33,003 bases of DNA from Candidatus Harrisonbacteria bacterium (GCA_023245035.1 JAHFLD010000003.1:121736-154738), one strand, 5' to 3'. Counted from the first letter of the stretch, positions 2-28,980 are shown. A program made the numbers and translations. The notes: generated by a model not told the origin, from the letters alone.

Positions 2-346
2 ATGGTGATTAAATTTGGCCGGTTTGGAAAGTTTTTGGCTTGTTCCGGTTTTCCCGAATGTAAAAACACCAAGTCTTTGACGGCCAGCGGAGAGAGGGAG
101 AAGTTGGAAAATCCGGGAGTAAAATGTCCCAAATGCAAAGAGGGGGAGGCGGTGACCAAGCGAGTAAATCGGGGCCGGGCGAGGGGCAAGTTTTTTTGGG
201 GATGCAGTCGATATCCGGATTGTGATTTTGCCACCTGGGAAAATCCGGCGGGAAAGTCGGCCGAGCAATTGGAAAAAGAACTGGCGGAGGCTTTGGCTAA
301 ACCGCCCAAGGTGCGGGCTTCACGGCAAAAAAAATCCCAGAAGTAG
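2..346 (+). CDS. topA: DNA topoisomerase I, C-terminal zinc-ribbon repeats (5' part outside window)
   Basis: GRFGKFLACSGFPECK and CPKC...FWGCSRYPDC zinc-ribbon motifs with a basic tail. Confidence 0.85.
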   Translation: MVIKFGRFGKFLACSGFPECKNTKSLTASGEREKLENPGVKCPKCKEGEAVTKRVNRGRARGKFFWGCSRYPDCDFATWENPAGKSAEQLEKELAEALAKPPKVRASRQKKSQK

Positions 347-356
347 CTTCTGGGAT
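327..356 (-). terminator. Intrinsic terminator for the 364..909 gene
   Basis: 10-bp perfect stem ATCCCAGAAG/CTTCTGGGAT (334-356) followed by a U-tract on the minus strand; overlaps the topA stop. Confidence 0.75.
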
Positions 357-363
357 GAGAGAT

Positions 364-909
364 CTAGCTATCGCGGGAGCGAGTGGCTTCAAAGGCCGCT
401 CGGATGTTTTGATACACTTCCGAACTAACGGCGGGGACGTTGGGATTGCTTTCTTGTCTATGCGATTCGGATTCGGCATTTTGAGGAAGGTTCAAGAGTT
501 CTGATGGGGAATAGATCAAGCGAAGACCGCCGCTTGATGCCTTGAGGCGAAAATGAGACAGGCGAGCGAACGCTACCTTGAGGACGTAGGCATTGTAGAT
601 GATATCTTCGGTTTCCTTGACTCTGATTGGACCATTCTCAAACAGCTCTCGCCACGCTTCGGGATAAAGCCACCAGTGGCCGATTTCGGCGAGAACACTG
701 CGCTGAATTGCTTGCTCTACGGTTTCAAACGGCGGCTCGACTTCGCCAACCACCGTTTCTTCGTACCATTCGGGGTATTCTTGAAATTCCGTAAAGTTGG
801 TATTCCACTCGCCTCGTTTTTGGAGAATAGCAAAGAGACTGGATTTGCCGTTTACATCTGTCCTGGCGGTCATAATGACCACCGAAACTCTGGTCTTTTT
901 GTGAACCAT
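364..909 (-). CDS. Hypothetical protein with degenerate Nudix-like box
   Basis: 181-aa ORF with SD (AAAGGA), promoter and terminator; GEVEPPFETVEQAIQRSVLAEIG resembles GX5EX7REUXEEXG, preceded by the LQKR strand typical of Nudix folds. Confidence 0.65.
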   Translation of the reverse strand: MVHKKTRVSVVIMTARTDVNGKSSLFAILQKRGEWNTNFTEFQEYPEWYEETVVGEVEPPFETVEQAIQRSVLAEIGHWWLYPEAWRELFENGPIRVKETEDIIYNAYVLKVAFARLSHFRLKASSGGLRLIYSPSELLNLPQNAESESHRQESNPNVPAVSSEVYQNIRAAFEATRSRDS

Positions 910-926
910 CTGAATCCTTTGGTTGT

Positions 927-980
927 TGTTAAAGAACGGAAACTTGGAAGGATAATAGGCCTATTTATGGGGTTGGTCAA
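927..980 (-). promoter_or_regulatory. sigma70 promoter plus boxA-like motif
   Basis: Minus strand: TTGACC (980-975), 17-nt spacer, TATTAT (957-952), then CGTTCTTTAACA (938-927). Confidence 0.7.
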
Positions 981-1026
981 TTTTGATTACTTTACACCGC
1001 CTTTCGGTTGTTCTATATAGAAAGCG

Positions 1027-2481
1027 ATGCTTTCCAAACAACTCATCGATCATCTGGCTGAAGGGATGGCGTCCAAGCGCGCCTATGATTTTGCGCGCGA
1101 GCAGTATCAGGGGCATGTGTTGCCCAACGGAGATTCTATGTTGGAGCGCGCGCTCGCGAATGCCGAGATGATGCTTAACTGGAGAGCGGGTGATGAGGCC
1201 TTGATAGCTGCCATGTTGCGTGATTTGCCCATGGCGAGTTCTTACGAGGCGAGAATTAAGACGGAATTTGGCGAGGATGTTTTGTGGCTGATACAAAAAT
1301 CTTTGGCTATCCATCGGATTAATTTTCGCGAGACGGAGGCAACAATGGTTGCCGTTCGGAAATTTATCCTGCAACTTTGCCCCGATGTGAGGATTTTGTT
1401 GTTAGTTTTGGCGCGCCGTTTGCATGATGCCAGATTTTTGTATGTTTTGCCGCCAGCGGAACGCCAGCGCGTAGCCATTCAAAATATGAAGGTTTACGCT
1501 GTGTTGGCTTATCAGATCGGACTTAATGAAGTCAGCGGGGAGTTGGCCGATCTTTCATTCCCTCACGCCTATCCGCAGGAGCACCAGTGGCTGATTAATA
1601 ATCTTCAGGATCGTTATGAAGAATGGGAAAAATATACCGAGTCTCTGGTGCCGATTTTGGAGTTGGCGTTGCGCGAGCGAGGGATCCGTGATTTTAGAAT
1701 TGAGCATCGTGCCAAAAGATACGCGAGTCTACATCATAAGTTGACTTATCGTTATGAAATGGCTTTGGGTCGAGTTGGAGATCTTGTTGCTTTGCGAGTA
1801 ATTGTCCCTACGGTTAACGATTGTTACGCGGTACTTGGCGTGGCTCATCAACTATGGGCGCCGGTTCCAGATAGAATTAAAGATTATATTGCCTATCCAA
1901 AGCCGAATGGTTATCGAAGTTTGCACACGACTCTTTTTACCAACGAGGACCAAAAAAAATTAATTGAGATTCAAATCAGAACTGAGGGTATGCATTATCA
2001 CGCAGAGTATGGTCCGGCGGCGGATTATGCCTATCATTTTAGAACTTCTCCAGCCATGGCTGGAGTTGGAGTTGGATTGGATATTGATGGCGCCACACTA
2101 ATGATGCTTCGCCGTTGGCGGGAAGTGACTTCTTCCGGATTCCCGGCCAAAGGCGCCTATGTATTGAATCTTTTTGCCGATCGGGTGTTTTTATTCACCC
2201 CGAAAGGCGATGTGTTTGATTTGCCGCAAGGAGCTACGCCGCTTGATCTGGCTTATAGAATTCATACGGATATCGGGCATCGCGCCGATCGAGCCGTGAT
2301 TAATGGCGTTCCGGCCACTTTGGCTGGGAAACTTTGTTCCGGAGATGTGGTAGAAATCTTGCTTCGCGCCGACCGAGTTCCTTTGTCTTCTTCGCTTGCG
2401 CGAGTCAAAACCCGAGGCGCGCGCGAAAAAATACGGGCGGCATTGCGCAGTGCCGCCGAATATTTTCATCATTCCGGTTAG
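1027..2481 (+). CDS. RelA/SpoT homolog: degenerate HD domain, (p)ppGpp synthetase, TGS
   Basis: DLVALRVIV, RIKDYIAYPKPNGYRSLHT, EIQIRT synthetase motifs; FTPKGDVFDLPQGATPLDLAYRIHTDIG TGS motif; HD position reads AAMLRDL. Confidence 0.9.
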   Translation: MLSKQLIDHLAEGMASKRAYDFAREQYQGHVLPNGDSMLERALANAEMMLNWRAGDEALIAAMLRDLPMASSYEARIKTEFGEDVLWLIQKSLAIHRINFRETEATMVAVRKFILQLCPDVRILLLVLARRLHDARFLYVLPPAERQRVAIQNMKVYAVLAYQIGLNEVSGELADLSFPHAYPQEHQWLINNLQDRYEEWEKYTESLVPILELALRERGIRDFRIEHRAKRYASLHHKLTYRYEMALGRVGDLVALRVIVPTVNDCYAVLGVAHQLWAPVPDRIKDYIAYPKPNGYRSLHTTLFTNEDQKKLIEIQIRTEGMHYHAEYGPAADYAYHFRTSPAMAGVGVGLDIDGATLMMLRRWREVTSSGFPAKGAYVLNLFADRVFLFTPKGDVFDLPQGATPLDLAYRIHTDIGHRADRAVINGVPATLAGKLCSGDVVEILLRADRVPLSSSLARVKTRGAREKIRAALRSAAEYFHHSG

Positions 2482-2508
2482 GGATTCTATTTGGAACTAA
2501 ATTTGGCT

Positions 2509-3408
2509 TTAGAGAAAAATGGTCGGTTGTTCGCCGGTTGTTGTCTCTGGTGTCTTTATCTCCTGAATTTCTTTTTTGCTTTCCAGGAGTTTGGCAATGA
2601 TGCCTTTTAACTCTTCCGGCGAATAAAAGTCAATCACGATTTTTCCGGTGCCGCCGGATTTTTCTAAATTTACTCTGGCGCCTAAAAATTCTTCCAGTGA
2701 TTTGGTGAGGCTGGCCAGTTCCGGATCCGGAACTGTCGGGAAGAGGTGATTCTCTTTTTTTAGTGCTTCCGCTTTTTTCTTTTCTATTTTGATTTTGAGT
2801 TCGCGGACGCTCAAATTATTTTTAATGATGTCTTCAAAAAGCATCTCTTGTTCGGCGATTTCCGGAATGGCGAGCAAGAGGCGCGCCTGACTTTCGCTTA
2901 ATTGCCCAACGGCGACGGCGTCTTGGATGTTAGTTGGCAAGTTCAAGAGGCGAACGGTGTTGGCTATGGTTTCCCGGCTCTTGCCGATTCGGCTGGCGAT
3001 CTCGCGCTGGGTCAAGTTGAATTGGTCCTGGAGTTTGGCGTAGGCGCGCGCCGATTCGATGGGGTTGAGGTTGGCTCGCTGGACGTTTTCAATAACGGCC
3101 AGCTCCAGACGCTCACGATCCAGTTTAATGCTTCGGATGATGGCCGGGACGCGTTCTAGCCCTAATAGTTTTGAGGCCAGCCAGCGGCGTTCACCGGCAA
3201 TGAGTTCATACTGAATGGTGGTGCCATGCTCGGCTAGTTCTTCGATTTTGGTAACAACCAACGGTTGGAGGATGCCGAATTCGCGGATAGAGCTGGCAAG
3301 TTCGCGCAAGCTTTCTTCGTCAAAAAATTTTCGCGGTTGGTGCGGGTTCGGGCGGATTTTTTCAACCTCAATCAAAAACACCGGGCCTTGAGTTTGTAGT
3401 TCTTCCAT
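2509..3408 (-). CDS. parB: ParB/Spo0J partition protein
   Basis: NPHQPRK, GILQPLVV, ELIAGERRWLA (GxRR), ENVQRANLNPIE, HTH TQREIASRIGKSRETIAN. Confidence 0.95.
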   Translation of the reverse strand: MEELQTQGPVFLIEVEKIRPNPHQPRKFFDEESLRELASSIREFGILQPLVVTKIEELAEHGTTIQYELIAGERRWLASKLLGLERVPAIIRSIKLDRERLELAVIENVQRANLNPIESARAYAKLQDQFNLTQREIASRIGKSRETIANTVRLLNLPTNIQDAVAVGQLSESQARLLLAIPEIAEQEMLFEDIIKNNLSVRELKIKIEKKKAEALKKENHLFPTVPDPELASLTKSLEEFLGARVNLEKSGGTGKIVIDFYSPEELKGIIAKLLESKKEIQEIKTPETTTGEQPTIFL

Positions 3409-3483
3409 AACAAATTAGGGTTGAGGGTAAAGGGTCTAAGGCGGAGAAAAATAATAGCCAGACGTTCCGAAGACCACCTGTAA

Positions 3484-3512
3484 TTTACTTTAGAAGAAAG
3501 CGTTGATATAAT
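3484..3512 (+). promoter_or_regulatory. sigma70 promoter of the tRNA-Leu/tRNA-Val pair
   Basis: TTTACT, 17-nt spacer, TATAAT with extended -10 TG. Confidence 0.65.
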
Positions 3513-3557
3513 CAACCGGATGTTTTTAGTCTAGTTCTTTTAATGGTTTTGTATTAT

Positions 3558-3640
3558 GCCGAGGTGGCGGAATGGCAGACGCAGTAGACTCAAAATCTAC
3601 CGATCGCAAGGTCATGAGGGTTCAAGTCCCTCCCTCGGCA
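3558..3640 (+). tRNA. tRNA-Leu(CAA)
   Basis: Cloverleaf GCCGAGG/CCTCGGC, anticodon arm GTAGA-CTCAAAA-TCTAC, long variable arm, GGTTCAAGTCC; CCA not encoded. Confidence 0.95.
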
Positions 3641-3666
3641 CAAGCTCTTTTTTAATTTAATTTTCT

Positions 3667-3738
3667 GCGCCCTTAGCTCAGTGGTAGAGCGTTTCATTGA
3701 CATTGAAAAGGTCGGAGGTTCGATCCCTCCAGGGCGCA
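3667..3738 (+). tRNA. tRNA-Val(GAC)
   Basis: Acceptor GCGCCCT/AGGGCGC, anticodon arm TTTCA-TTGACAT-TGAAA, T-arm GGAGG-TTCGATC-CCTCC. Confidence 0.95.
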
Positions 3739-3741
3739 CCT

Positions 3742-3865
3742 AGATTATAAAATACCTTTAAGGTATTTTTAGTCTTATACTGGAGGGATCGAACAGTGGA
3801 GGGGGTCGAGGACCGCGTTTGGTCTCCCGTGTTGGAGATTATCCAGAACCATCGGTTCTGAAAAG
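3742..3865 (+). repeat. tRNA-trailer structured element, copy A (hairpin, anti-T-arm, conserved core)
   Basis: AT-rich hairpin 3742-3775; CTGGAGGGATCGAAC (3780-3794) is the exact reverse complement of tRNA-Val 3718-3732; core 3791-3865 is similar to 25811-25886 on the minus strand. Confidence 0.75.
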
Positions 3866-3967
3866 AGAATTGCCACGTTTCGCTTCGGTTGGCGACTAAT
3901 TGGTATTTAATTTTTGGACTAAAAACGAATTGGCGATTTGGTATTTTTTGGGAAGTTTTTTAATCGT

Positions 3968-4642: not shown

Positions 4643-4703
4643 AATCATGGTTTTTAATTTTTAAAAAAATTGAGGCCAAATAAAAACTTGAAATTGTCAG
4701 CGT

Positions 4704-4743
4704 GCGCCTGCCCGCCTGCGCCGAGGCTTCGGCGGGCAGGCGC
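4704..4743. repeat. GC-rich palindromic (REP-like) element
   Basis: 13-bp perfect inverted repeat GCGCCTGCCCGCC/GGCGGGCAGGCGC enclosing an alternative hairpin CGCCGAGGCTTCGGCG. Confidence 0.7.
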
Positions 4744-4840
4744 CACCTTTCTTAATTTTCACGGTGGACTTCCTCGCCGCCGTAGGCGGTGAAAGCGGTT
4801 CGGACTAATTCAAGTAGTCTGTACAAAAAAAGGAAAACTT

Positions 4841-5410
4841 ATGAAATTTTCTTTTTGGAATTTTGTTGCCGGTTTTTATGATCGCCTTTTTTCGCCGATG
4901 CTTAATAGCGATATTCCGGCGATTTGTGAATTAGCCAGTTTTGAAAAGGCAGATTTAGTTTTGGACTATGGCGGAGGAACCGGGCGGGTGGCGCTCGCGA
5001 TTCGCGGTAAAGTTGCTCGGGTAATAGTTTTAGATGCCGCTTCGAAGATGATCGCGGAAGCTTGTTTAAAGGAGTTGGAGGGAGAGGTGGTTTCTGGTCT
5101 GCCGACTCATTTTGAAGCGGCTTCCTGCGACAAGATTATAGTGATTGAGTCCTTTCATCACTTGCCCAACCAGGATGATCACCTAAAAGAGTTTTGGCGC
5201 CTTTTGAAGCCCGATGGCGTTTTGTTGATTGAAGAGCCAAATCTTGATTCGGCGATTAAATATTTTCTTTGGCTGGAGCATGGGTTTAGGCATTTTCCAT
5301 ATTGGACGGCTGATACTTGGCGGGCGAAACTTTTGACCGCTGGTTTTTTGGTGCAGACCGAAAAAATCGCCGGCTCACGATATTTTGTGAAGGCCAAGAA
5401 AATTGGTTGA
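4841..5410 (+). CDS. Class I SAM-dependent methyltransferase (UbiE/Methyltransf_11-like)
   Basis: Motif I VLDYGGGTG, LDAASKMI, SFHHLP, RLLKPDGVLLI. Confidence 0.85.
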   Translation: MKFSFWNFVAGFYDRLFSPMLNSDIPAICELASFEKADLVLDYGGGTGRVALAIRGKVARVIVLDAASKMIAEACLKELEGEVVSGLPTHFEAASCDKIIVIESFHHLPNQDDHLKEFWRLLKPDGVLLIEEPNLDSAIKYFLWLEHGFRHFPYWTADTWRAKLLTAGFLVQTEKIAGSRYFVKAKKIG

Positions 5411-5435
5411 TGCCCTGGTGTGTTTTTTGTTTTTG

Positions 5436-5479
5436 TGGTATTCTTCTTATGGGTTCATTGTTCTTTGATAATTGGAGGT
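5436..5479 (+). promoter_or_regulatory. Extended -10, boxA-like motif and SD
   Basis: TGGTATTCT (5436-5444), TGTTCTTTGATA (5459-5470), GGAGGT (5474-5479). Confidence 0.6.
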
Positions 5480-5484
5480 AATTA

Positions 5485-6054
5485 ATGAGAATCGGTCTTG
5501 ATTTCGACGGAGTCATTGCTAATTGCGGCAAGTTGAAGGCCGATGGAGCGCGGGAACTTTACGGCCTTGATATCCAGCCAACAAACTTCTCTAAGGAATT
5601 TGTTGTTGGTGCGGGTTATCTGACGATCGAGGAGTATCGCAATCTTCAGCGAAAGGTTTATGAGACACCGGAGTTTATCTCTCTAATGGAGCCGGTTGGC
5701 GGGGCTTTTGAGTATGTTTCTCGACTTGTCGCGGATGGGCACATTGTTCAGGTTATAACTTCGAGAAGCGGCCTGGTTCTTGAAGTCGCGAAGGCATGGC
5801 TTTTGCGACAAGGATTAAAGCTTTCGGTTGTCGGTGTCGGCTATGGCAGGAGCAAGGCGGAAGCGGCTCTTGGTTTAGACGTTTACATCGATGATGATTT
5901 TCAGAAGCTAGAACAGCTTGTTGGTGTTGTCCCTCATAGATTCTTGTTTAGCTGGGGTTATAACGCGGGACTTGATGTTGGAACTCTGGCTCGAAGAGTT
6001 GCTTCTTGGCGGGAGTTTTACGAGGCGATCAGCTTGCTCAAAAACGCTCTGTGA
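5485..6054 (+). CDS. HAD-superfamily phosphatase, 5'(3')-nucleotidase-like
   Basis: Motif I IGLDFDGVI, motif II VITSR, motif III K, motif IV YIDD. Confidence 0.8.
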   Translation: MRIGLDFDGVIANCGKLKADGARELYGLDIQPTNFSKEFVVGAGYLTIEEYRNLQRKVYETPEFISLMEPVGGAFEYVSRLVADGHIVQVITSRSGLVLEVAKAWLLRQGLKLSVVGVGYGRSKAEAALGLDVYIDDDFQKLEQLVGVVPHRFLFSWGYNAGLDVGTLARRVASWREFYEAISLLKNAL

Positions 6055-6071
6055 ATAAGGGGCGTTTTTTT
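6040..6071 (+). terminator. Intrinsic terminator, possibly bidirectional
   Basis: AAAAACGCTCT...GGGGCGTTTTTTT stem with G-U pairs and U-tract. Confidence 0.6.
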
Positions 6072-6139
6072 ATTTCTTTGCTATACTATTGGTAGTACTT
6101 TCGCGGGCGGTTTCCTAGCATAAAAACAGGAGGACGATC

Positions 6140-10474: not shown

Positions 10475-10795
10475 ATGATTGATGTCCAAATTTTGCCCAA
10501 GATCAAGCCCGGCGCCATGGTGCGCGTTTTTGAGAAGGTTAAAGAGGGCGATAAAGAGCGAATAGCTCGGTTTGAGGGCGTGGTGCTTGCGCGAAAACAC
10601 GGTTCGGAAGCCGGGGCGACTTTTACCGTGCGCGGTACGGTAGCGGAAATTGGCGTCGAAAAATTGTATCCGATTCATTCCCCGGTGATTGATAGTGTCC
10701 AAGTGACGAGCTCGCCAAAAAAGGTGCATCGCGCCAAGCTTTATTACATTCGCGATATTTCGCGGAAGCGTCTCCGCCAGAAGTTAGGATTGTAA
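10475..10795 (+). CDS. rplS: 50S ribosomal protein L19
   Basis: VRVFEKVKEGDKERIARFEGVVLAR, TFTVR, GVEKLYPIHSP, RAKLYYIRD. Confidence 0.97.
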   Translation: MIDVQILPKIKPGAMVRVFEKVKEGDKERIARFEGVVLARKHGSEAGATFTVRGTVAEIGVEKLYPIHSPVIDSVQVTSSPKKVHRAKLYYIRDISRKRLRQKLGL

Positions 10796-11000: not shown

Positions 11001-11031
11001 AAAAAAAACCGCCCAGCTTTGCGGCTGGGCG
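11001..11031 (-). terminator. Intrinsic terminator for the 11040..11642 gene
   Basis: CGCCCAGC/GCTGGGCG stem followed by 8 U on the minus strand. Confidence 0.8.
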
Positions 11032-11039: not shown

Positions 11040-11642
11040 CTAGGCGGCCAAGAGGAGCCAACCGTTCCTGTTTTTTAGGAGCGGCATATATTCCATGGCG
11101 AGATCGGCGAGCGGAGAGAGATGTTGCGTTTGGTCGTGGCGTTCCAGCAGGTAGAAGGCGAAGAGATAGAAGAGAATGCCGTGCAAATTGACGTGAGCGG
11201 TGGAGCGAATGAGCGTATTCCAATCGGTGGCGATTTTGCCGGCGATTCCCTTGGTGCAGTCGGTTCCGATGATTCCGTGGAGTTTTCCGGTCAACATCAG
11301 ACGCGTCGCGGTATTGAGAACTTTAATCTCGGCGAAGTGCTTGCGGGCCAAAGCATCCACGAGCGGTACGGCTTCCATGTCAACAATCGTTTTCGGTTTG
11401 GCGTGCTGGCGCGAGATGAGGACGACTTCGGTGGTCTCACATCCGACTGCTTGGCAAATGATTCGGGCCGTCGCTCCCTTGTTGCAATCTCCGGCATCCC
11501 GCAGCGGATACATCGTGTGTTCCGGCTGGCTGAGTCTCTCGAGTCGGTTCAAAATCGGCACGATCTCGTTCCGGAAGGTTATCGGTGTTATCCGACCCTC
11601 CAGAAACTCTCGCAGTTGCAGGACAGCCGATCGTTCACTCAT
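11040..11642 (-). CDS. Hypothetical protein (orphan)
   Basis: 200-aa ORF with AGGAG SD, upstream promoter and downstream terminator; overlapping plus-strand ORFs lack such signals. Confidence 0.7.
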   Translation of the reverse strand: MSERSAVLQLREFLEGRITPITFRNEIVPILNRLERLSQPEHTMYPLRDAGDCNKGATARIICQAVGCETTEVVLISRQHAKPKTIVDMEAVPLVDALARKHFAEIKVLNTATRLMLTGKLHGIIGTDCTKGIAGKIATDWNTLIRSTAHVNLHGILFYLFAFYLLERHDQTQHLSPLADLAMEYMPLLKNRNGWLLLAA

Positions 11643-11675
11643 GAGATTCTGATCTCCTGTAGAAGCGGGTCAAGT

Positions 11676-11756
11676 TGTCAAAGAGCCGTATTGAACGAAA
11701 ATGAGCCTTTCGCAAAGCTCATTGGACTATGATAATCATTTTGCCCCGGAAGTCAA
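11676..11756 (-). promoter_or_regulatory. sigma70 promoter, leader hairpin and boxA-like motif
   Basis: Minus strand: TTGACT, 16-nt spacer, TATCAT; hairpin AATGAGC..GCTCATT (11700-11723); GGCTCTTTGACA (11687-11676). Confidence 0.65.
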
Positions 11757-15700: not shown

Positions 15701-17164
15701 ATGATTTCCAAAAAAACCGAAGAACAGGGAGAAAATAAAATGGAAAAAATAATTTCGCTTTGCAAGCGGCGGGGTTTTGTTTTTCCGGGTTCGGAGATCT
15801 ATGGCGGTTTGGCGAATTCCTGGGATTTTGGGCCCTTGGGCGTGGAGCTAAAGAATAATATTAAGACCGAATGGTGGAACCGGTTTGTGCGCCGACGCGC
15901 TGATATGGTTGGCATCGAGACGGCCTTGATTATGAGCCCGAAGGTTTGGGAGGCTTCCGGACACTTGAAGGAGTTTTCGGATCCTTTGGTGGAGTGCAAA
16001 AAATGCCACAGCCGTTTTCGCGCCGATCAAGACAATGGAAGCTTGAAAGCGGAGCTGGTGTTTTTGAAAGAAGCTGAAGCAGACGGGGAAAATCCGATGA
16101 AGGTTTCCGGAAAAGTTGTTCGATATCGATTGAGCGGCAAGTGCCCGGTTTGTGATTCACCGGCAGACGCGGATAGCTTTACCTCTCCAGCGAGCTTTAA
16201 TCTGATGCTCAAGACGTTTTTGGGTCCGGCGCAAGAGAAGGCCAACGAGGTTTATTTTCGGCCAGAAACCGCGCAGGGGATGTTTGTTAATTTTAAAAAT
16301 GTTTTAAATACCACGCGGCGCAAATTGCCGTTTGGCATCGCTCAAATCGGCAAGGCTTTTCGCAACGAGATTACTCCGGGAAATTTTATTTTTCGGACGC
16401 GCGAGTTTGAACAAATGGAGATTGAATACTTTATTCCGGAGCCGAAGGCCGATCATGACTGGCAGAAGTATTTTGAGCACTGGAAGAATGAGATGAAGTC
16501 GTGGTTGCGAGACTTGGGCGTAAGCGAGAGCCGCCTGCATTTTGAGGATATTCCCGAGGGCGAGCGAGCTCATTATTCCAAGCGGACGATGGATGTTGAG
16601 TATGATTTTCCTTTCGGCCGCAAAGAACTTTATGGCTTGGCCTATCGCGGTAATTTTGATTTGTCGGCGCACGCGCAAGGAAGCGGGGAAGACCTGCAAT
16701 ACACCGATCCGGAGACCGGAGCGAAATTTATTCCGCATGTAATTGAGCCGACTTGGGGTGTGGAGCGGACGGCGCTGGTCGCGTTGCTTGAGGCCTATTC
16801 CGAGGAAAAAACCCCCTCAACTGACGGCGAGGGCGAGGCGCGAACGGTTTTAAAATTTCCATTTTGGCTGGCGCCGGTCAAGATCGCGGTTTTGCCCTTG
16901 TCCAAAAAGGAGGAGCTGTCCGCTTTCGCCAAGCCATTGTTTGAAACTTTGATTCAGCACTTTGCTTGCGAGTATGACGAGACGCAATCTATCGGCAAGC
17001 GATATCGCAGGCAGGACGAAATTGGCACGCCGTTTTGCGTGACGGTGGATTTTGATTCGCTTAAGGATCGAGCGGTAACAGTGCGGCATCGCGATACGAT
17101 GGAACAAGAGCGGGTGCCGATTGAGAATTTGGTTGCGCATTTTTCCGAAAAATTCGCCCGTTAA
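15701..17164 (+). CDS. glyQS: Glycine--tRNA ligase, single-subunit (alpha2) type
   Basis: LCKRRGF..GSEIYGG, RPETAQG, FRNEITPGNFIFRTREFEQME, PHVIEP, SIGKRYRRQDEIGTP; start could be the second Met (15740). Confidence 0.96.
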   Translation: MISKKTEEQGENKMEKIISLCKRRGFVFPGSEIYGGLANSWDFGPLGVELKNNIKTEWWNRFVRRRADMVGIETALIMSPKVWEASGHLKEFSDPLVECKKCHSRFRADQDNGSLKAELVFLKEAEADGENPMKVSGKVVRYRLSGKCPVCDSPADADSFTSPASFNLMLKTFLGPAQEKANEVYFRPETAQGMFVNFKNVLNTTRRKLPFGIAQIGKAFRNEITPGNFIFRTREFEQMEIEYFIPEPKADHDWQKYFEHWKNEMKSWLRDLGVSESRLHFEDIPEGERAHYSKRTMDVEYDFPFGRKELYGLAYRGNFDLSAHAQGSGEDLQYTDPETGAKFIPHVIEPTWGVERTALVALLEAYSEEKTPSTDGEGEARTVLKFPFWLAPVKIAVLPLSKKEELSAFAKPLFETLIQHFACEYDETQSIGKRYRRQDEIGTPFCVTVDFDSLKDRAVTVRHRDTMEQERVPIENLVAHFSEKFAR

Positions 17165-17168: not shown

Positions 17169-18452
17169 ATGCCTATCAACAAAAAACAATTTGAGATTTT
17201 GACGCTGAAGAATGGTTTGCGAATTATGCTGATTCCTCGCGCGGAGCAGGTGGCGACGACGGTTTTGGTTTTGGTCGCGGCCGGTTCCAAGTACGAGAAA
17301 AAACCGATTAACGGCATTTCTCACTTTTTGGAGCACTTGTGTTTTAAGGGCACGACGCGCCGGCCAAAGTCAATTGATATTTCGATTGAACTGGATCGCA
17401 TCGGCGCGCGACATAATGCTTTTACCAGTCATGAATATACCGGCTATTGGGCCAAGGCGCAGGCGCATCAGACGGAAAAAATTTTGGATATTGTGAGTGA
17501 TTTATATTTGAATCCGACTTTTCCAGCAGCGGAGATAGAAAAAGAAAAGGGAGTGATTATTGAAGAGCTGAATATGTACGAGGATTTGCCGAATCGGAAG
17601 GTGCACGATGTTTTTAATGAATTGCTCTATGGCGATCAGCCGGCGGGTTGGGATGTTGGCGGAACCAAAGAGGTGATTCGCCGACTGACTAGGCAAGAGA
17701 TTGTGGATTATCGCGCGGCGCATTACGTGGCCTCGTCAACTTTGGTGGTGGTGGCCGGCGGTTTTTCCAAAGCCAAACTTTTGCCATTTATTAAAAAGAG
17801 TTTTGAGGTGATTCCGGTTGGCACGGCGCAGGGCAAGGTATCGGTGCGCGAGGCGCAAGCGCGGCCGATGGTTAAGGTGCAATATAAAAAATCCGATCAG
17901 ACTCACATTGCGCTCGGAGTGCGGGCGTTTAACATGTATGACGAACGGCAATACGCCTTGGAGTTGCTGGGCGATATTTTGGGCGGCTCTATGGCTTCGC
18001 GCTTGTTCCAGAGATTGCGCGAAGAATTAGGTTCGGCGTATTACGTCCGCGCGGGAAGCGATTTAATGACCGATCATGGTTATTTCGCAGTAGCGGCCGG
18101 CATTGGACACGAAAAGCTTACGGAGTCGCTTCAGGCGATTTTGGCGGAGATGCGCGACTTGGCCAATGGCGGCGTTACAGAAGACGAGATTTCGCGCGCC
18201 AAAGAGCATTTGGCCGGATCAACTTTGATCAGTTTGGAAACTTCCGATGATTTGGCTAATTTTTATGGAGCGCAGGAGATTCTAAAACAGCCGGTTATGA
18301 CGCCCGAGCAGATTATCGCCAAAATAAACGCCATCTCGCGCGACGAGGTAACGGCGGTGGCCCGAGCGATTTTCAAAAACGACGGTTTGAACCTGGCGGC
18401 GGTTGGACCCTATCGCGACGGTTTGGCTTTTGAGAAGTTGCTTAAACTTTAA
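17169..18452 (+). CDS. M16-family (pitrilysin-like) zinc peptidase
   Basis: GISHFLEHLCFKGT (HxxEH), NAFTS, EKGVIIEE, SRLFQRLREELG.AY; ATG 4 nt after the glyQS stop. Confidence 0.93.
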   Translation: MPINKKQFEILTLKNGLRIMLIPRAEQVATTVLVLVAAGSKYEKKPINGISHFLEHLCFKGTTRRPKSIDISIELDRIGARHNAFTSHEYTGYWAKAQAHQTEKILDIVSDLYLNPTFPAAEIEKEKGVIIEELNMYEDLPNRKVHDVFNELLYGDQPAGWDVGGTKEVIRRLTRQEIVDYRAAHYVASSTLVVVAGGFSKAKLLPFIKKSFEVIPVGTAQGKVSVREAQARPMVKVQYKKSDQTHIALGVRAFNMYDERQYALELLGDILGGSMASRLFQRLREELGSAYYVRAGSDLMTDHGYFAVAAGIGHEKLTESLQAILAEMRDLANGGVTEDEISRAKEHLAGSTLISLETSDDLANFYGAQEILKQPVMTPEQIIAKINAISRDEVTAVARAIFKNDGLNLAAVGPYRDGLAFEKLLKL

Positions 18453-19931: not shown

Positions 19932-19946
19932 TGTCATGCCGGTTTT

Positions 19947-23309: not shown

Positions 23310-23338
23310 TTTTTAGGTTTTTATTTTCCATCACGCCC

Positions 23339-23512: not shown

Positions 23513-23536
23513 ATTTTGTTTAGCAGTCTCGAACTA

Positions 23537-24592: not shown

Positions 24593-24637
24593 TGGGTTTA
24601 ATTGTATATCAGATTTAGTTTTTTCTTTTGTGGAAAC

Positions 24638-24706
24638 TTGCGGTTGGCGTTCTTTTGATTTATATTCTGTTCGGTTCTTTGGCGGTTTTTGCGGTCACAA
24701 ATGGAG
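24638..24706 (+). promoter_or_regulatory. sigma70 promoter, boxA-like motif and SD
   Basis: TTGCGG (24638), 17-nt spacer, TATATT (24661); GGTTCTTTGGCG (24673-24684); GGAG before ATG 24713. Confidence 0.5.
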
Positions 24707-24712
24707 ACCTTC

Positions 24713-24979
24713 ATGTCCGGTCAAGAAATCACCGCGGCGGTGCCGGCTTCGTCCGCTCTTAACGGGCGTACGATTCTTGGCGTTTTTAAGAAGACGGTTC
24801 GCGAGGGCGGTTCGTCTTGCGACACCCTTCACTTTTTGCTTGATAGCAATGTTGAGCTGGTGATTGGTTCGCAGTTTGTTTTGGGCGCCGATCATGGCGG
24901 TTACACCGTGGCGACGGTTTGGATGAAGACCGGCGAGCATGGCCCCAATGATCGAGGAGAAGTTCTGTTTCGAGAGTAG
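24713..24979 (+). CDS. Hypothetical protein (orphan, 88 aa)
   Basis: ORF with SD, promoter and terminator. Confidence 0.6.
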   Translation: MSGQEITAAVPASSALNGRTILGVFKKTVREGGSSCDTLHFLLDSNVELVIGSQFVLGADHGGYTVATVWMKTGEHGPNDRGEVLFRE

Positions 24980-24987
24980 GTGTTTCT

Positions 24988-25013
24988 AGCCTCGTACTTT
25001 ACGGGGCTTTTTT
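24988..25013 (+). terminator. Intrinsic terminator
   Basis: AGCCTCGTA/TACGGGGCT stem followed by a T-tract. Confidence 0.7.
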
Positions 25014-25046
25014 ATATGCTGATCAACTTCTTCGGCAAATTAAATT

Positions 25047-25088
25047 TGGTGGACCTAGCCAGAATTGAACTGGCGACTCCTCGTTGCC
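25047..25088 (-). pseudogene. Isolated tRNA-Ala-like 3' half with CCA
   Basis: Minus strand GGCAACGAGGAGTC-GCCAG-TTCAATT-CTGGC-TAGGTCC-ACCA: 3' anticodon arm, intact T-arm, Ala-type acceptor strand (U70); no own 5' half. Confidence 0.7.
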
Positions 25089-25121
25089 CCGATGGACTTT
25101 GGTGGGCTAACACTGTTTATG

Positions 25122-25193
25122 TGGACCAAGGGAGGATTGAACTCCCGACCTCCTCATTGCAAATGAGGCGCTCTACCACTGAGCTATTGGCCC
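25122..25193 (-). tRNA. tRNA-Ala(TGC)
   Basis: GGGCCAA/TTGGTCC acceptor with G3-U70, anticodon arm CCTCA-TTTGCAA-TGAGG; CCA not encoded. Confidence 0.95.
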
Positions 25194-25330
25194 ACCAAAG
25201 TCATACGGGATTGTGTTTTGTGACTTCGCTGCGCTTCAGATAAAACGGGAACAAACGAGGCGTAATCGATTTTTACAGTATCAAAATTCGCGCACAGGCG
25301 CAATTTTTTGGTTTGTGATAGAATCGGCTT

Positions 25331-25741
25331 ATGGAAAAATTTCAACCGGAGAGTGACAATGAATCCATCAGAGAAAATCAGTGGGGTTTGGGGCGGGTTG
25401 ATGTTTCGTCGCGCGGTCAAGATGTTGTTGATGCTAACGAAGAGACCGCCAGTTATCTTGAAGATCTTCATGACGCCATGAAGTCGGCTGGCGCCGATGA
25501 AGCCGCTAAAGAAGCTTTAGAACTTTTTATTCATCTTTCATCAGAAAGTTCCGCTGGCGATGTAACTGCGGCGGTTGATGATTTGCTTTCTCGTCGGCAA
25601 AGCGCTTTGGCTTCGATGATGAACGAGGATCCGACTGCTTCGGTGGAAGCTAATTATTTAAATGGTCTTAGAAAGCGGCGCGCGAGGGAAAAAATAGAAG
25701 CAGGTAAGTCGCTTGATGACCGAACTAATTTTGTTGGGTAA
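25331..25741 (+). CDS. Acidic hypothetical protein
   Basis: 136-aa ORF; TGATAGAAT extended -10 six nt before ATG. Confidence 0.65.
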   Translation: MEKFQPESDNESIRENQWGLGRVDVSSRGQDVVDANEETASYLEDLHDAMKSAGADEAAKEALELFIHLSSESSAGDVTAAVDDLLSRRQSALASMMNEDPTASVEANYLNGLRKRRAREKIEAGKSLDDRTNFVG

Positions 25742-25778
25742 GCGTGTTTTTTTGCTAAATTTTCCGAAAGTCAGATTG

Positions 25779-25896
25779 TGGTGTCCCCGCGAGGAATCTC
25801 ACGCGCTTTGCTTTTAGAAACCGACGGTTTCTAATCTCTTCCTGAACGGGAAACCGCAGGCGGTTTCCCGACCCCTTCCACTGTTCGATTCCTCGC
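25779..25896 (-). repeat. tRNA-trailer structured element, copy B (anti-T-arm, conserved core, duplicated tRNA 3' end)
   Basis: 25883-25896 is a 14-bp perfect inverted repeat of tRNA-Arg 25921-25934; hairpins 25847-25870 and 25814-25834; 25779-25798 repeats the tRNA 3' end with CCA. Confidence 0.8.
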
Positions 25897-25913
25897 AAGA
25901 AATTTACTATTTG

Positions 25914-25985
25914 TGCCCCCGCGAGGAATCGAACCTCGATTTTTTCCTTAGGACGGAATTGCTCTATCCATTGAGCTACAGGGGC
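25914..25985 (-). tRNA. tRNA-Arg(CCT)
   Basis: GCCCCTG/CGGGGGC acceptor, D-arm GCTC-AATGGATA-GAGC, anticodon loop GTCCTAA, T-arm CGAGG-TTCGATT-CCTCG. Confidence 0.9.
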
Positions 25986-26035
25986 GTTTTGCGTTAGTAT
26001 CAGATTGCCACATTTTGTTAGACTTAGGAAGTTTT

Positions 26036-26125
26036 GGAGGGTTGGCAGAGTGGTCTAACGCGCCGCACTCGAAATGCGGTTGGGGAGAAATCCCCTCGGA
26101 GGTTCGAATCCTCCACCCTCCGCCA
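26036..26125 (+). tRNA. tRNA-Ser(CGA)
   Basis: GGAGGGT/ACCCTCC acceptor, G73, CCGCA-CTCGAAA-TGCGG, long variable arm, encoded CCA. Confidence 0.95.
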
Positions 26126-26238
26126 GGACAATTTTTTATCGGCATGATACGAGTAACTACGAGCGAGCGGTGGCTAGAGGGCTTTGCGCCTAAGATTTGT
26201 TAGAGTAATGTTTGTTAATCAATTAGGAAAAATAAACT

Positions 26239-26679
26239 ATGGCAACAATCAATCCTCACATTAATTTCAACGGCAATGCCGAAGAGGCGTTTACATTTTA
26301 CAAGTCAGTTTTTGGCGGAGAATTCGCAAAAGTTATGCGCTTCAAAGACCTTTCAAGTCCTGAATTTCCCGTAGCGGAGAAAGAGGCGAATAAAATCATG
26401 CACATTGCTTTGCCTATTGGCAAAAATAATGTATTGATGGCCAATGATGTTCCGGAGAGTATGGGACGAACAAATGAAAACGAAAACAGAAGCAAAATTG
26501 CTATCAGCGCGGAAAGCAAAGAAGAGGCGGATAGATTATTTAACGGGCTTTCAGTAAATGGCAAAATCGAAATGCCCATCGGCGACAGTCCTTGGGGTTC
26601 ATATTTTGGCATGTTTAGAGACAAGTATGGCATTGAATGGATGGTGGATTTTGATCCAAAATATAGCGGGCAGAGGTAA
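26239..26679 (+). CDS. VOC/glyoxalase-family protein (PhnB-like)
   Basis: INPHINFNGNAEEAFTFYKSVFGG, IMHIAL, PWGSYFGMFRDKYGIEWMV. Confidence 0.9.
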   Translation: MATINPHINFNGNAEEAFTFYKSVFGGEFAKVMRFKDLSSPEFPVAEKEANKIMHIALPIGKNNVLMANDVPESMGRTNENENRSKIAISAESKEEADRLFNGLSVNGKIEMPIGDSPWGSYFGMFRDKYGIEWMVDFDPKYSGQR

Positions 26680-26737
26680 CTAAACAAAGTATGAACGAAA
26701 AGAATGCCCAGAACGAAAAACGTGAAGAAATAAATTC

Positions 26738-27184
26738 ATGCAAAAAATAACAACATTCCTTTGGTTTGATGATCAGGCGGAAGAGGCAATGAATTTTTAC
26801 GCTTCAATTTTCAAAAATTCAAAGGTCACGCATGTCACTCGCGGCCCGAATGGCGCGGTATTTTGGGTGTCGGCAGATATCGCGGGACAAACATTTTACG
26901 CGCTAAACGGCGGACCGAAATTCAAATTTACCGAAGCCATTTCACTCTTTGTTACCTGCGAAGATCAGACAGAGGTAGATGACTTGTGGAGTAAGCTTGC
27001 GGCAGACGGCGGAAGCGAGAGCATGTGCGGCTGGCTCAAAGATAAGTATGGTCTCTCGTGGCAGATTATACCCAAAGCACTAAGTGAGTATTTGGCAAAA
27101 GATTCATCGGGAAAAGTAATGCAGGCGATGCTTGGCATGAAAAAAATTGACATTTCCGGACTCAAAAAAGCTTTGGAATCTTAG
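26738..27184 (+). CDS. VOC-family protein (PhnB / 3-demethylubiquinone-9 3-methyltransferase-like)
   Basis: KITTFLWFDDQAEEAMNFY, ALNGGPKFKFTEAISLFV, CGWLKDKYGLSWQI, MQAMLGMKKIDI. Confidence 0.9.
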   Translation: MQKITTFLWFDDQAEEAMNFYASIFKNSKVTHVTRGPNGAVFWVSADIAGQTFYALNGGPKFKFTEAISLFVTCEDQTEVDDLWSKLAADGGSESMCGWLKDKYGLSWQIIPKALSEYLAKDSSGKVMQAMLGMKKIDISGLKKALES

Positions 27185-27214
27185 GATGGAATTTTTCTAG
27201 TTTGCATTTTTCTT

Positions 27215-27607
27215 ATGAAAACTTTATTGATAGACGCGGTTGATGGGTTGGTCATCCCTTGTGAGGGCGGTTTTAAAATTTTTGCCGAAATGCATGACTT
27301 GCTGGAATCTTTTCCGAACCGAAAGATCGTGGTGACCAATGCCCGAAGTGATTCGTTTGCGAAATTCGGTCTGGACAAGATGCCTTATGAGGTTTTTACG
27401 CTACAGCAGAATCCGGCAAAAACTGAGGCGAAATATTTTGAAACATTACTTCAACACTTTAGGTTGAATTCGCGGGAGGCGGTCTATTTTGAGCATAATC
27501 CGGAGGCGGTACGAGCCGCTGAATCCGTTGGTATAAAATCGTATTATTATGATTCAAAAAAGAGGGATTTTGATTCGCTGAAGAGCTTTCTGGTCGAGAA
27601 TCTCTGA
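27215..27607 (+). CDS. Minimal HAD-like hydrolase
   Basis: LLIDAVD, VVTNA, PAKTEAKYF, YFEHNPEAVRAAESVGI match degenerate HAD motifs I-IV. Confidence 0.65.
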   Translation: MKTLLIDAVDGLVIPCEGGFKIFAEMHDLLESFPNRKIVVTNARSDSFAKFGLDKMPYEVFTLQQNPAKTEAKYFETLLQHFRLNSREAVYFEHNPEAVRAAESVGIKSYYYDSKKRDFDSLKSFLVENL

Positions 27608-27683
27608 TGCTCGTTTTTTCTGAGTAAAGATCTATTAATCTTGAAATCTTTGGCTTGTTGGGTGTTTGGTCGGTGGATTTTTT

Positions 27684-28091
27684 ATGAAAATTTATTCTTA
27701 CTGGGGCAAAAAAACACTTTTTTGGTTTTTGGTGGCGACATTGATATTGCTAGTCGTCTACTTCTTTTTTGGGCCGATTGGTTTTGATGGGGGTTATGCA
27801 AGATCTTTTGATTCAGAGCTTTGGAAAAGCGCGGAGGGGATTCACGATACGGATAATCCAATCCGACTTCAGATGATTGATGATTTTCTTGGTCACTACC
27901 AGCTTGTTGGTATGTCGCGTAGTGAGATTGATGCCCTCCTGGGCGTTCCTCAACCTACCGGCTATTTTAAAAATTATGATTATGTTTACTGGCTTGGTCC
28001 GGAGAGGAGCGCTTTTGGGATTGATTCTGAATGGTTGGGAATAATGTTCAGTAATAATGCCGTTGCTCAAGTTCAGATTTTAAAGGATTGA
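27684..28091 (+). CDS. Membrane-anchored hypothetical protein (SmpA/BamE-like motif)
   Basis: N-terminal TM helix; LVGMSRSEIDALLGVP...YVYWLG...LGIMF. Confidence 0.6.
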   Translation: MKIYSYWGKKTLFWFLVATLILLVVYFFFGPIGFDGGYARSFDSELWKSAEGIHDTDNPIRLQMIDDFLGHYQLVGMSRSEIDALLGVPQPTGYFKNYDYVYWLGPERSAFGIDSEWLGIMFSNNAVAQVQILKD

Positions 28092-28244
28092 TTTTGGTTT
28101 GCTTTAAATCTGGCGTAGCTCTTTTTGGATTGAAAAAATTATTACTTGGCGTTATAGTGGTCTTTGTTTTCTGAATATGTCTTTGATGTGTGCGCCTAGC
28201 TCGGACGAAATTAAAATTTGAGTTTTAATTTCACTTCTCGCTTC

Positions 28245-28315
28245 GGGCCTATAGTAAAATGGTATTACGCTTCCATGGCATGGAAGAGGTAGGAGTTCGA
28301 TTCTCCTTAGGTCCA
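28245..28315 (+). tRNA. tRNA-Ala(GGC)
   Basis: GGGCCTA/TAGGTCC with G3-U70; CTTCC-ATGGCAT-GGAAG with the A32-U38 pair known for this isoacceptor; promoter TTGAAA-N17-TATAGT at 28130-28158. Confidence 0.95.
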
Positions 28316-28322
28316 CCCCGAT

Positions 28323-28425
28323 TTGACTTTGTTTTTACTTTCTGTTAGATTGTTTTCGGTTCTTTGAAGAGAGTTTTGATTTCCGCAGGGTGCGGAGATT
28401 GCCGATTTTCTCGCTAATCAAGGAG
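28323..28425 (+). promoter_or_regulatory. sigma70 promoter, boxA-like motif and SD
   Basis: TTGACT (28323), 17-nt spacer, TAGATT with extended TG; GGTTCTTTGAAG (28358-28369); AAGGAG (28420-28425). Confidence 0.7.
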
Positions 28426-28432
28426 TTTTCCA

Positions 28433-28921
28433 ATGTTGAACGGTTTTGCTGAGCCGGATTTGAAGCCGGAGATCATTCCGGTCGGCGCGGTAAGAGTTCC
28501 CTTGACCGCGACTCTTGAATTGATGGCGGCTGGAAAGTATGACTTTGTGAGTGGGGGATTTGAACGCAGTGTCGGCATGTTGCCTCGGGTGGCGCTTGGA
28601 GGCGAGGGCGATCTTGAGGTTAAGGCGATTGGTTTTGGAAGCATCGCGTCAACCAGTCAGGCACTTCAAGCTCTGTCCACGATGAAGCTTCGCCCGTTGA
28701 ACATTCGCGAATTGCTCGCGGTCGGGGTTCATTTTCCGGATCTCCAAAAAATGTTTTTGATGGTTGCCTTGGGGACCAGGTTCTCTACGTCGATTTGCGA
28801 ACGGTTTGCGTTTTTGTGGGGCAGCTCTTCGTCGGGTTCGTCTTCGCGGTATCTGTGCCTCAACGCCACCGAGTTTAAGTGGCCGTCCTACGCGCGATTT
28901 CTTGTTGCCCCCGCAGCCTAG
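28433..28921 (+). CDS. Hypothetical protein, possible C-type-lectin-like fold
   Basis: AAGKYDFV, LRPLNIRELLA..FPDLQK..VALG, C-terminal RYLCLN....W..YARFLVA. Confidence 0.65.
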   Translation: MLNGFAEPDLKPEIIPVGAVRVPLTATLELMAAGKYDFVSGGFERSVGMLPRVALGGEGDLEVKAIGFGSIASTSQALQALSTMKLRPLNIRELLAVGVHFPDLQKMFLMVALGTRFSTSICERFAFLWGSSSSGSSSRYLCLNATEFKWPSYARFLVAPAA

Positions 28922-28938
28922 AGTTTTTTGACCCTCTT

Positions 28939-28980
28939 TCCCTTTTGGTAAGCTTTCAAGCTTACTAAAAGGGATTTTTT
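28939..28980 (+). terminator. Long-stem intrinsic terminator
   Basis: TCCCTTTTGGTAAGCT/AGCTTACTAAAAGGGA stem (one G-U) followed by T6. Confidence 0.8.

Follow-up and report, generated by a model that had tools for sequence, protein, structure and literature searches.

Why should five scattered genes, whose products are unrelated, all be introduced by the same short word? The question is raised by a 33,003-nucleotide (nt) stretch of DNA from Candidatus Harrisonbacteria bacterium (GCA_023245035.1 JAHFLD010000003.1:121736-154738), hereafter called the window. A first-pass annotation had described five genes in it, each with a sigma70-like promoter, the word GYTCTTTR, a Shine-Dalgarno (SD) sequence and its own intrinsic terminator; it had likened the word to boxA, the NusB/NusE binding site of ribosomal RNA (rRNA, rrn) leaders, and had proposed a class of monocistronic messenger RNAs (mRNAs) marked by Nus factors. 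The word proves to be a longer, strand-specific leader element, which recurs throughout the genome, is conserved in a sister genome and heads a distinct class of short transcription units. According to the reading favoured here, with a probability of roughly 0.55, it would be an RNA site of the boxA type, through which NusB-S10 is brought to the RNA polymerase during transcription.

A strand-specific word in transcript leaders

In the window all five words are found where they had been placed, in the sense of the downstream gene, at 937-930(-), 5460-5467(+), 11686-11679(-), 24674-24681(+) and 28359-28366(+). The bare count is not enriched: GYTCTTTR occurs eight times in the window, 5.32 being expected, and 18 of 100 shuffled sequences reach eight. 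Strand and position are biased, with five of the eight copies falling into the 2,193 of 66,006 strand-nucleotides (3.3%) that are leader-sense within 100 nt of a start (binomial p=2.1e-6). The other three, all on the minus strand and none in a leader, are intergenic (10552-10559) or antisense to plus-strand genes of our own gene map (16621-16628, 18200-18207).

The genome (G000) is of the candidate phyla radiation (CPR) type and comprises 715,905 bp in 5 contigs, rated 99.4% complete. Its gene map of 709 genes is dicodon-based and, like the terminator finder and the weight matrix used below, comes from our own scripts. The matrix (13 positions) was built from leader copies of the word, so that compartment counts derived from it are partly circular; exact-word counts are not. 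In an unbiased screen of 8-mers up to 150 nt upstream of genes, GTTCTTTG was the 19th most enriched in the sense orientation (15 seen, 2.5 expected, 5 antisense), preceded by T-runs, TGCTATAAT-type and TTGACAA-type promoter words, and three overlapping 8-mers of the word CCTAAACCC. Exact-word counts in leaders delimit the element: GYTCTTTRA is found 18 times in sense and 5 times in antisense, with 2.0 expected, whereas replacing the 5' G ([ACT]TTCTTT: 30 sense, 30 antisense, 30.1 expected) or the 3' A (GYTCTTTR[CGT]: 3, 4 and 3.0) abolishes the excess, and both are therefore required. A tail A-[A/C]-A-[A/C], which lay outside the search pattern, is shared by 26 leader copies. The consensus in leaders is the asymmetric GYTCTTTRA(M)A, which marks about 45-60 leaders of the genome and is enriched there 6- to 9-fold in sense, with antisense, permuted and backwards controls at background. 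Among the 62 intergenic or edge matches scoring at least 11 bits, 48 are oriented as in leaders, 9 are not and 5 are unclassifiable (null 52:48, p=3.8e-7); several of the 9 actually precede small open reading frames (ORFs) absent from the gene map. Genome-wide leader enrichment, together with the association with terminators and orphan genes described below, bears out the first-pass annotation on this point.

The annotation had not recorded the usual place of the word, which is at or adjoining the predicted transcription start. A sigma70-type promoter is recognized at most 80 nt upstream of 30 of the 62 copies, compared with 11% of random leader positions, and in 15 of the 62 the -10 hexamer ends 6-8 nt before the G, a placement that only 47 of 5000 random positions show at the wider spacing of 5-8 nt. 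It follows that such RNAs should, as predicted, begin with (R)GUUCUUUGA. In the remaining 15 promoter-linked copies the word follows the -10 box at 10-53 nt. A distance that varies so widely overall (6 to 53 nt) is more easily reconciled with a signal in RNA than with a site fixed in the DNA. Eight leaders have a spacing of 30 nt or more, and six of them carry a hairpin ahead of the word. Between the G and the start codon the median distance is 41 nt; nine matches have a candidate promoter between word and start codon, mostly one with 9/12 matches beside a low-scoring copy. The variant GTTCGTTGACAA is found at the same spacing behind very strong promoters. Along these lines, near-identical modules of strong promoter and leader, cATTGACAAAAAAGCAAAAGCCGTGCTAnAGT..CAG-CGTTCGTTGACAA followed by a hairpin around CATGAGG, are present at C4:182759 and C4:118684 (also C2:66546); they precede different small orphan ORFs and represent a paralogous sub-family of cassette leaders that uses GTTCGTTGACAA.

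A second word enriched upstream in the sense orientation, C(C)TAAACCC, was also observed in this genome (CTAAACCC: 11 seen, 0.96 expected; 26 copies genome-wide). Examples are C4:43441, C5:8744, C4:145077 and C3:207415, and one copy lies on the minus strand of the window at 5282-5289. Further (T/C)NACCCT-like units often stand behind it, close to the start codon, and it sometimes overlaps a -10 box directly before the ATG, in which case leaderless starts are possible.

Insulated cassettes and their conservation

The five units of the window, here called cassettes 1 to 5, are composed as follows (lengths of ORFs in amino acids, aa).

952..980, minus strand: cassette 1 promoter TTGACC-17-TATTAT (scan, 10/12 matches)
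926..937, minus strand: cassette 1 boxA-like word GTTCTTTAACAA (16.5 bits; 14 nt after the -10 box)
364..909, minus strand: cassette 1 ORF, 181 aa, no Pfam family (SD AAAGGA at 920-915)
334..356, minus strand: cassette 1 intrinsic terminator, 10-bp stem, T8 (scan)
5436-5444, plus strand: cassette 2 weak extended -10-like TGgTATTCT (read by eye; no promoter satisfying the scan rule upstream)
5460..5471, plus strand: cassette 2 boxA-like word GTTCTTTGATAA (16.8 bits)
5485..6054, plus strand: cassette 2 ORF, 189 aa, NT5C-type 5'-nucleotidase (Pfam; SD GGAGG at 5474-5478)
6040..6069, plus strand: cassette 2 terminator-like hairpin with T-run, overlapping the stop codon (scan)
11729..11756, minus strand: cassette 3 promoter TTGACT-16-TATCAT (scan)
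11701..11722, minus strand: cassette 3 leader hairpin ATGAGCTTTGCGAAAGGCTCAT, between start site and word (-10.2 kcal/mol, z=-2.8; identical in the sister genome G001)
11675..11686, minus strand: cassette 3 boxA-like word GCTCTTTGACAA (17.3 bits; 42 nt after the -10 box)
11040..11642, minus strand: cassette 3 ORF, 200 aa, no Pfam family (SD AGGAG at 11658-11654)
11010..11031, minus strand: cassette 3 intrinsic terminator (scan)
24638..24666, plus strand: cassette 4 promoter-like TTGCGG-17-TATATT (8/12, under the scan rule, read by eye; conserved in G001)
24674..24685, plus strand: cassette 4 boxA-like word GTTCTTTGGCGG (13.3 bits; core only, tail not boxA-like; 7 nt after the -10 box)
24713..24979, plus strand: cassette 4 ORF, 88 aa, no Pfam family (SD GGAG at 24703-24706)
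24988..25008, plus strand: cassette 4 intrinsic terminator (scan)
28323..28351, plus strand: cassette 5 promoter TTGACT-17-TAGATT with TG before the -10 (scan; directly 3' of tRNA-Ala 28245-28317)
28359..28370, plus strand: cassette 5 boxA-like word GTTCTTTGAAGA (16.5 bits; 7 nt after the -10 box, at the predicted RNA 5' end)
28377..28401, plus strand: cassette 5 leader hairpin followed by CCGATTTTCT, terminator-like (scan)
28433..28921, plus strand: cassette 5 ORF, 162 aa, no Pfam family (SD AAGGAG at 28420-28425)
28939..28974, plus strand: cassette 5 intrinsic terminator, 16-bp stem (scan)

The SD sequences are all present, with an ATG at each annotated start, a hairpin with T-run was found after each gene by consensus scan, and the proteins are indeed unrelated (best cross-match among the five E=0.26). 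The promoters were confirmed in part: three of the five satisfy the scan rule (980-952, 11756-11729, 28323-28351), those of cassettes 2 and 4 being weaker and read by eye. The leader hairpin of cassette 5 may be an attenuator, as it scores as terminator-like with CCGATTTTCT behind it. A TCCGCAG..GCGGA hairpin after the word is common to the leaders of the gene at 28433 and of a distant paralogue (30% aa identity, C5:81606; leader G000:C5:81300). A sixth, weak matrix match in the window, at 31555-31567 (CGTTTTTTGAAAC, 11.6 bits) at the start of the 31540/31561-33003 ORF, lacks the position-5 C and probably does not belong to the class.

The same architecture holds genome-wide. Among first-in-unit genes with at least 40 nt of upstream gap, a terminator directly after the stop codon is seen in 26 of 41 motif-led genes and 61 of 416 others (odds ratio 10, p=4e-11), and promoters with at least 10/12 matches in 19/41 and 68/416, respectively (p=2.5e-5). 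Motif-led genes have a median length of 191 aa and a lower dicodon score per residue (p=9e-5). Pfam families were sought for the 40 best of the 62 matches and for one lower-ranked ORF, which has none; of the 36 callable ORFs among the 40, 11 reached the Pfam cut-off, compared with 16 of 20 random first-in-unit genes without the motif (Fisher p=6e-4). The 11 are DHODH-like, SPFH, DUF5701, two GNATs, PurH, a B12/radical-SAM enzyme, NT5C, a signal peptidase, Mu Gam and ThyX, and S12, S3, PGK, a class II aminoacyl-tRNA synthetase and RecA are among the controls that reached it. No translation gene was met in the 37 motif-led ORFs scanned. The Pfam contrast and the lack of translation genes in this set support the earlier claim that the leader marks accessory and not backbone genes; no core gene was found to be motif-led among these ORFs. 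Motif-led units are a distinct class, most of them built from near-consensus promoter, word, SD, a single ORF and its own terminator, and mostly orphan or accessory in content.

Non-coding RNAs were considered as targets and rejected: an Rfam scan of 10 motif loci returned only two transfer RNAs (tRNAs), the first of them separated by 313 nt from the copy upstream and the second lying on the opposite strand. At C5:116530-116860 (L041 401-725) a copy of the motif lies 7 nt after TTGAAA-17-TATACT and is followed by about 310 nt without a called ORF and then by tRNA-Thr(GGT); at the head of this stretch is a segment, GTAGCTCAGATGGTAG, that resembles a tRNA but in which neither ARAGORN nor Rfam calls one.

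Conservation was examined in G001, a sister genome of the same genus, for 8 homologous leader pairs. In six of these pairs the identity of the 12-mer is 0.94, compared with 0.61 and 0.54 in its upstream and downstream flanks, and in the three most diverged (43-71% aa identity) the word stands at 0.92 and the flanks at 0.49 and 0.45. Four of the five window genes have G001 homologues (94, 61, 51 and 30% aa identity), all of which keep the word at the same promoter spacing. The homologue of cassette 1 (30%) has TTGACA-17-TATCAT-14 nt-GCTCTTTAATAA, the orthologue of cassette 3 (94%) has GTTCTTTGACAA, the homologue of cassette 4 (51%) keeps GGTTCTTTA at the same spacing, and the orthologue of cassette 5 (61%) keeps promoter and motif while the rest of its leader differs. 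The cassette 2 gene, used as query, found no homologue in G001 or in G007, a genome of the same family. All 11 G001 copies of GTTCTTTGAMA lie in leaders with SD and start codon, and six of them precede homologues of motif-led genes of G000. One G001 motif-led gene has a G000 homologue without the word upstream, which indicates that sites are gained and lost.

The spread is narrow. GTTCTTTGAMA occurs 12 times in G000 (backwards and permuted controls 0 and 0), 11 times in G001 (3 and 3) and 8 times in G007 (3 and 1); counts in the 28 remaining relatives are 0-6 and match the controls. When 120 further genomes of the class were sampled, G000 remained the highest of the 121 and most genomes stood at control level, so that a class-wide trait was rejected; five others reached at least eight copies (11, 10, 9, 9 and 8, with controls of 6, 3, 1, 1 and 4).

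boxA likeness, Nus factors and the rival readings

For gamma-proteobacteria the boxA search word is GYTCTTTAANA (Baniulyte et al. 2017, PMC5725501), and the rrn boxA consensus is UGCUCUUUAACA in E. coli and AUGAUCUUUGAAA in B. subtilis, where BsNusB binds the site just after a small 5' hairpin (PMC13753749). In the crystal structure, NusB/NusE read boxA nucleotides 1-8 (PMC3177189). The forms of the G000 word, GUUCUUUGAAAA, GYUCUUUAACAA and GCUCUUUGACAA, lie between the E. coli and B. subtilis rrn consensus. They have the boxA core G-Y-U-C-U-U-U (nucleotides 2-8 of the 12-mer, which NusB/NusE touch in that structure) and the following R-A-N-A, and the enrichment needs G2 and R9-A10; window copy 4, GTTCTTTGGCGG, has the core only. 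As judged by sequence, the word is boxA-like over its whole length, R-A-M-A tail included.

The machinery is largely encoded. NusB (118 bits to PF01029) aligns full-length with solved NusBs; its F125 corresponds to AaF122, so that the Phe stacking on U8 is kept, and the positions of E81 and G78 are occupied by Asp and Ser, as in Thermotoga NusB (contact residues from PMC3177189). The protein looks intact. S10 (NusE, 116 bits), NusA and a single NusG-family gene were found as well. No Inositol_P (SuhB) match and no Rho_RNA_bind (Rho) match were obtained in G000, the controls being positive in 14 and 9 of 14 reference genomes. With Rho not found, the classical anti-Rho role cannot apply, and with neither Rho nor SuhB matched, any complex here differs from that of E. 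coli. The proposed Nus-marked class of monocistronic mRNAs is partly supported: its promoter-motif-SD-ORF-terminator layout, its orphan bias, its full-length boxA likeness and the presence of NusB, S10, NusA and NusG speak for it, and it is qualified by Rho and SuhB not being found and by the weak copies in the genome's own rRNA leaders.

In the favoured reading, the RNA element (N)GYUCUUURA(M)A would be transcribed at or near the 5' end of some 45-60 transcripts; on leaving RNA polymerase it would be bound by the NusB-S10 (NusE) heterodimer, and the pair would meet NusG and NusA at the polymerase in the manner of rRNA leaders. Rho protection or long-range processivity is an unlikely purpose, given that Rho and SuhB were not found and that the genes are short and individually terminated. 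The only mRNA-leader boxAs examined by experiment repress. That of suhB, at 6 nt from the SD, still prevents translation when 100 nt are inserted, and the complete complex on the polymerase is required for this (PMC5725501). By analogy, a suhB-like effect, in which a loop from boxA to polymerase damps translation initiation or otherwise tunes output, is slightly favoured; damping would tie strongly promoted accessory genes to the free NusB/S10 pool, hence to the state of ribosome assembly. The alternative effect, a fast and pause-resistant expression module of the rrn type, is possible and slightly less favoured.

Several observations weigh against a NusB-S10 site. The genome's own rRNA leaders hold weak copies only, TGGCCTTTGAAAA before the 16S gene (7.2 bits) and TGAACTTTGATAA before the unlinked 23S-5S unit (6.7 bits), compared with 13-18 bits for mRNA copies; the former is separated by about 45 nt from a TTGACA-17-TATAAT promoter upstream and by 170 nt from the 16S gene downstream, and the two have in common only the CUUUGA(A/U)AA part. 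SuhB, a component of the E. coli complex, is among the factors not found. No copy stands directly before nusB or rpsJ, so that Nus autoregulation of the gamma-proteobacterial type is not evident. An antitermination signal would hardly be expected on genes that run straight into strong terminators. Transcription starts are predictions from promoter matches, 32 of the 62 copies have no promoter recognizable by the scan rule, and the narrow peak of spacings at 6-8 nt from the -10 box, which takes in 15 of the 30 copies linked to a promoter, would suit a promoter-tied DNA element too. Finally, some matches of 11-12.6 bits are probably false, one lying inside the 16S gene and two in a direct repeat (C3:66287/66368).

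Fifteen 16S leaders from the same order were compared. In 12 of them the top score is higher in sense than in antisense, one site being a perfect AGTTCTTTGAAAA, and at least 10 bits are reached by 5/15 in sense and 1/15 in antisense, the word lying 80-300 nt before the 16S genes; the Wilcoxon p of 8e-4 overstates the case, as the relatives are not independent, and a yield of only 5/15 counts among the unfavourable points as well. A high-scoring copy 1.36 kb upstream of the 23S gene was rejected as an rRNA boxA, for it leads a separate 208-aa ORF. Two candidates for autoregulation fell likewise. Between nusB and the copy found 1 kb upstream of it lie first a separate ORF of 215 aa, to which this copy belongs and which has a terminator of its own, and then a short ORF; upstream of tuf-rpsJ, a variant copy heads an orphan ORF of 309 aa that is likewise terminated separately, and tuf is served by its own promoter. 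As to the rRNA genes themselves, the 16S gene stands alone (C3:222206-223867) and measures 1662 nt against a model of 1533 positions, while the 23S-5S unit lies on another contig (C5:62320-66187, L003 1501-5368) under its own TTGACA/TATACT promoter, the 23S gene carrying a group I intron (Rfam RF00028, 58 bits, L003 4852-5052). Blocks of a TACGAAT / ATTCG heptamer repeat occur between tuf and rpsJ (C4:96940-97060, L138 2540-2660), and the same repeat type recurs before the 16S gene (L001 1430-1500) and at L003 20-60.

The rival that survives best, which we nevertheless regard as unlikely, places the signal in the DNA: a promoter-proximal element, either the operator of an asymmetric DNA-binding protein or an initially transcribed signal read by polymerase or sigma, would set initiation or escape for an accessory regulon. 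The preferred start 6-8 nt after the -10 box, the greater frequency of near-consensus promoters before motif-led genes and the joint conservation of promoter and word in G001 would all suit it, yet half of the promoter-linked copies lie further downstream, often behind a hairpin, and the 10-12 nt coincide with a known RNA signal that is also met before the 16S genes of relatives. The word is moreover strictly strand-specific and single, with no inverted or direct partner; a paired or repeated operator was rejected, with only one leader pair within 100 nt and one non-leader direct repeat. Nor is it a -35 element, as a -10 hexamer with at least 4/6 matches at promoter spacing (16-18 nt downstream of TTGAMA) accompanies 3/62 copies, compared with 57/126 other leader TTGAMA and 105/1359 random positions.

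Next in rank, and doubtful to a similar degree, comes an RNA 5'-end element read by a factor other than NusB/S10, which would act on stability against 5'-dependent RNases or as another RNA-binding regulator of translation. The strand specificity, the predicted 5'-end position in a quarter of the copies and the median distance of 41 nt to the start codon would suit such an element, and RNA-binding proteins do exist here, one random control gene encoding an RRM-type protein. There is, on the other side, no independent reason to invoke one, and the word matches boxA position by position; a translational enhancer that pairs with rRNA was rejected, since the 16S gene has no complement of at least 7 nt.

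A NusG-dependent pause signal is distinctly improbable. B. subtilis and M. tuberculosis NusG induce pausing through TTNTTT in the non-template strand, often in 5' leaders, where about 20% of the 1600 B. subtilis NusG pauses are found (PMC11602163, PMC9963633); the core TTCTTT fits this motif, and NusG is present. In leaders, TT[ACG]TTT is nevertheless seen 150 times in sense and 135 in antisense, without strand bias, and TTCTTT lacking the 5' G stands at expectation (see above), the enrichment needing G-Y before and R-A after it. TTNTTT as a sufficient, strand-specific leader signal is rejected by these background counts, and the variants GTTCGTTGACAA and GTTCCTTGAAAA break TTNTTT yet sit behind strong promoters at the same spacing. 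Least probable is that the word has no function, as a by-product of base composition or of duplicated promoter-leader modules: the 8-mer is not enriched in the whole window and some leaders are clearly paralogous (C4:182759/C4:118684, C5:150093/C5:81300), but leader-sense enrichment is 6- to 9-fold over background controls, flanks are unrelated among most copies, and diverged pairs keep the word while their flanks decay.

Comparison with known systems and meaning

A boxA-type site for NusB-S10 would have its closest counterpart in the rrn leader boxA, which in E. coli assembles NusB, S10/NusE, NusA, NusG, SuhB and S4 and has a boxA-like equivalent in B. subtilis. Alike are the type of word (10-12 nt, in sense in the leader), the small hairpin that often precedes it and the NusB, S10, NusA and NusG encoded in G000. 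In contrast to the rrn site, the G000 word precedes short single protein-coding units in dozens of copies, often at the predicted +1, its 16S and 23S leaders hold degenerate versions only, and Rho and SuhB were not found. ops/RfaH and LoaP offer a further parallel: these NusG paralogues act on the leaders of horizontally acquired operons, ops being read as non-template DNA and serving long operons. As in the present reading, accessory genes are singled out for a specialized elongation complex by a short, strand-specific signal in their leaders; the two cases differ in the word, in the single short genes served here and in the one NusG-family gene found in G000.

The mRNA boxA of E. coli and Salmonella suhB and of the Citrobacter koseri ParE-like toxin gene (PMC5725501) likewise lies between promoter and SD and was found with a near-identical search word, and the targets described there cover many functions, an accessory toxin gene included; G000 differs in having about 40-60 sites in 0.72 Mb, none before translation genes in the 37 ORFs, and no Rho found. 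The boxA upstream of CRISPR arrays, mentioned in PMC13753749, is a further case of boxA modifying non-rRNA transcription, there protecting a long untranslated RNA from Rho, unlike the short, translated G000 units, in which no CRISPR array is involved.

Outside rRNA, boxA is known from a handful of sites per genome in gamma-proteobacteria, with an effect through Rho. No relevant paper on boxA in Patescibacteria, the candidate phyla radiation or Parcubacteria came up in a literature search. New in G000 are the scale, which amounts to about 6-9% of those genes that have an upstream gap, the predicted +1 position, the link to insulated orphan cassettes and the background without Rho and SuhB, which suggests that factors of rRNA transcription are put to work on ordinary mRNAs at an unusual scale. 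More tentatively, and with the odds against it, one may imagine that in this Rho-less, SuhB-less genus of ultra-small Patescibacteria the NusB-S10/boxA system has expanded from rRNA to a global regulon, with a high-affinity boxA at the extreme 5' end of roughly a tenth of transcription units, nearly all of them insulated single-gene cassettes of fast-evolving orphans, whereby accessory output would be coupled to free NusB/S10 and through it to the state of ribosome assembly; the mRNA sites, being closer to consensus than those of the genome's own rRNA leaders, may compete with rRNA for the factors.

Taken with the cassette layout, the word serves as an inexpensive guide to transcription starts and accessory genes when such uncultured genomes are annotated. 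If NusB and S10 bind it, this organism would offer a natural system for the role of Nus factors without Rho, a question left open by the 2026 B. subtilis study (PMC13753749), and the word would be a first candidate for a global regulatory signal in CPR bacteria, in which few regulators are known.

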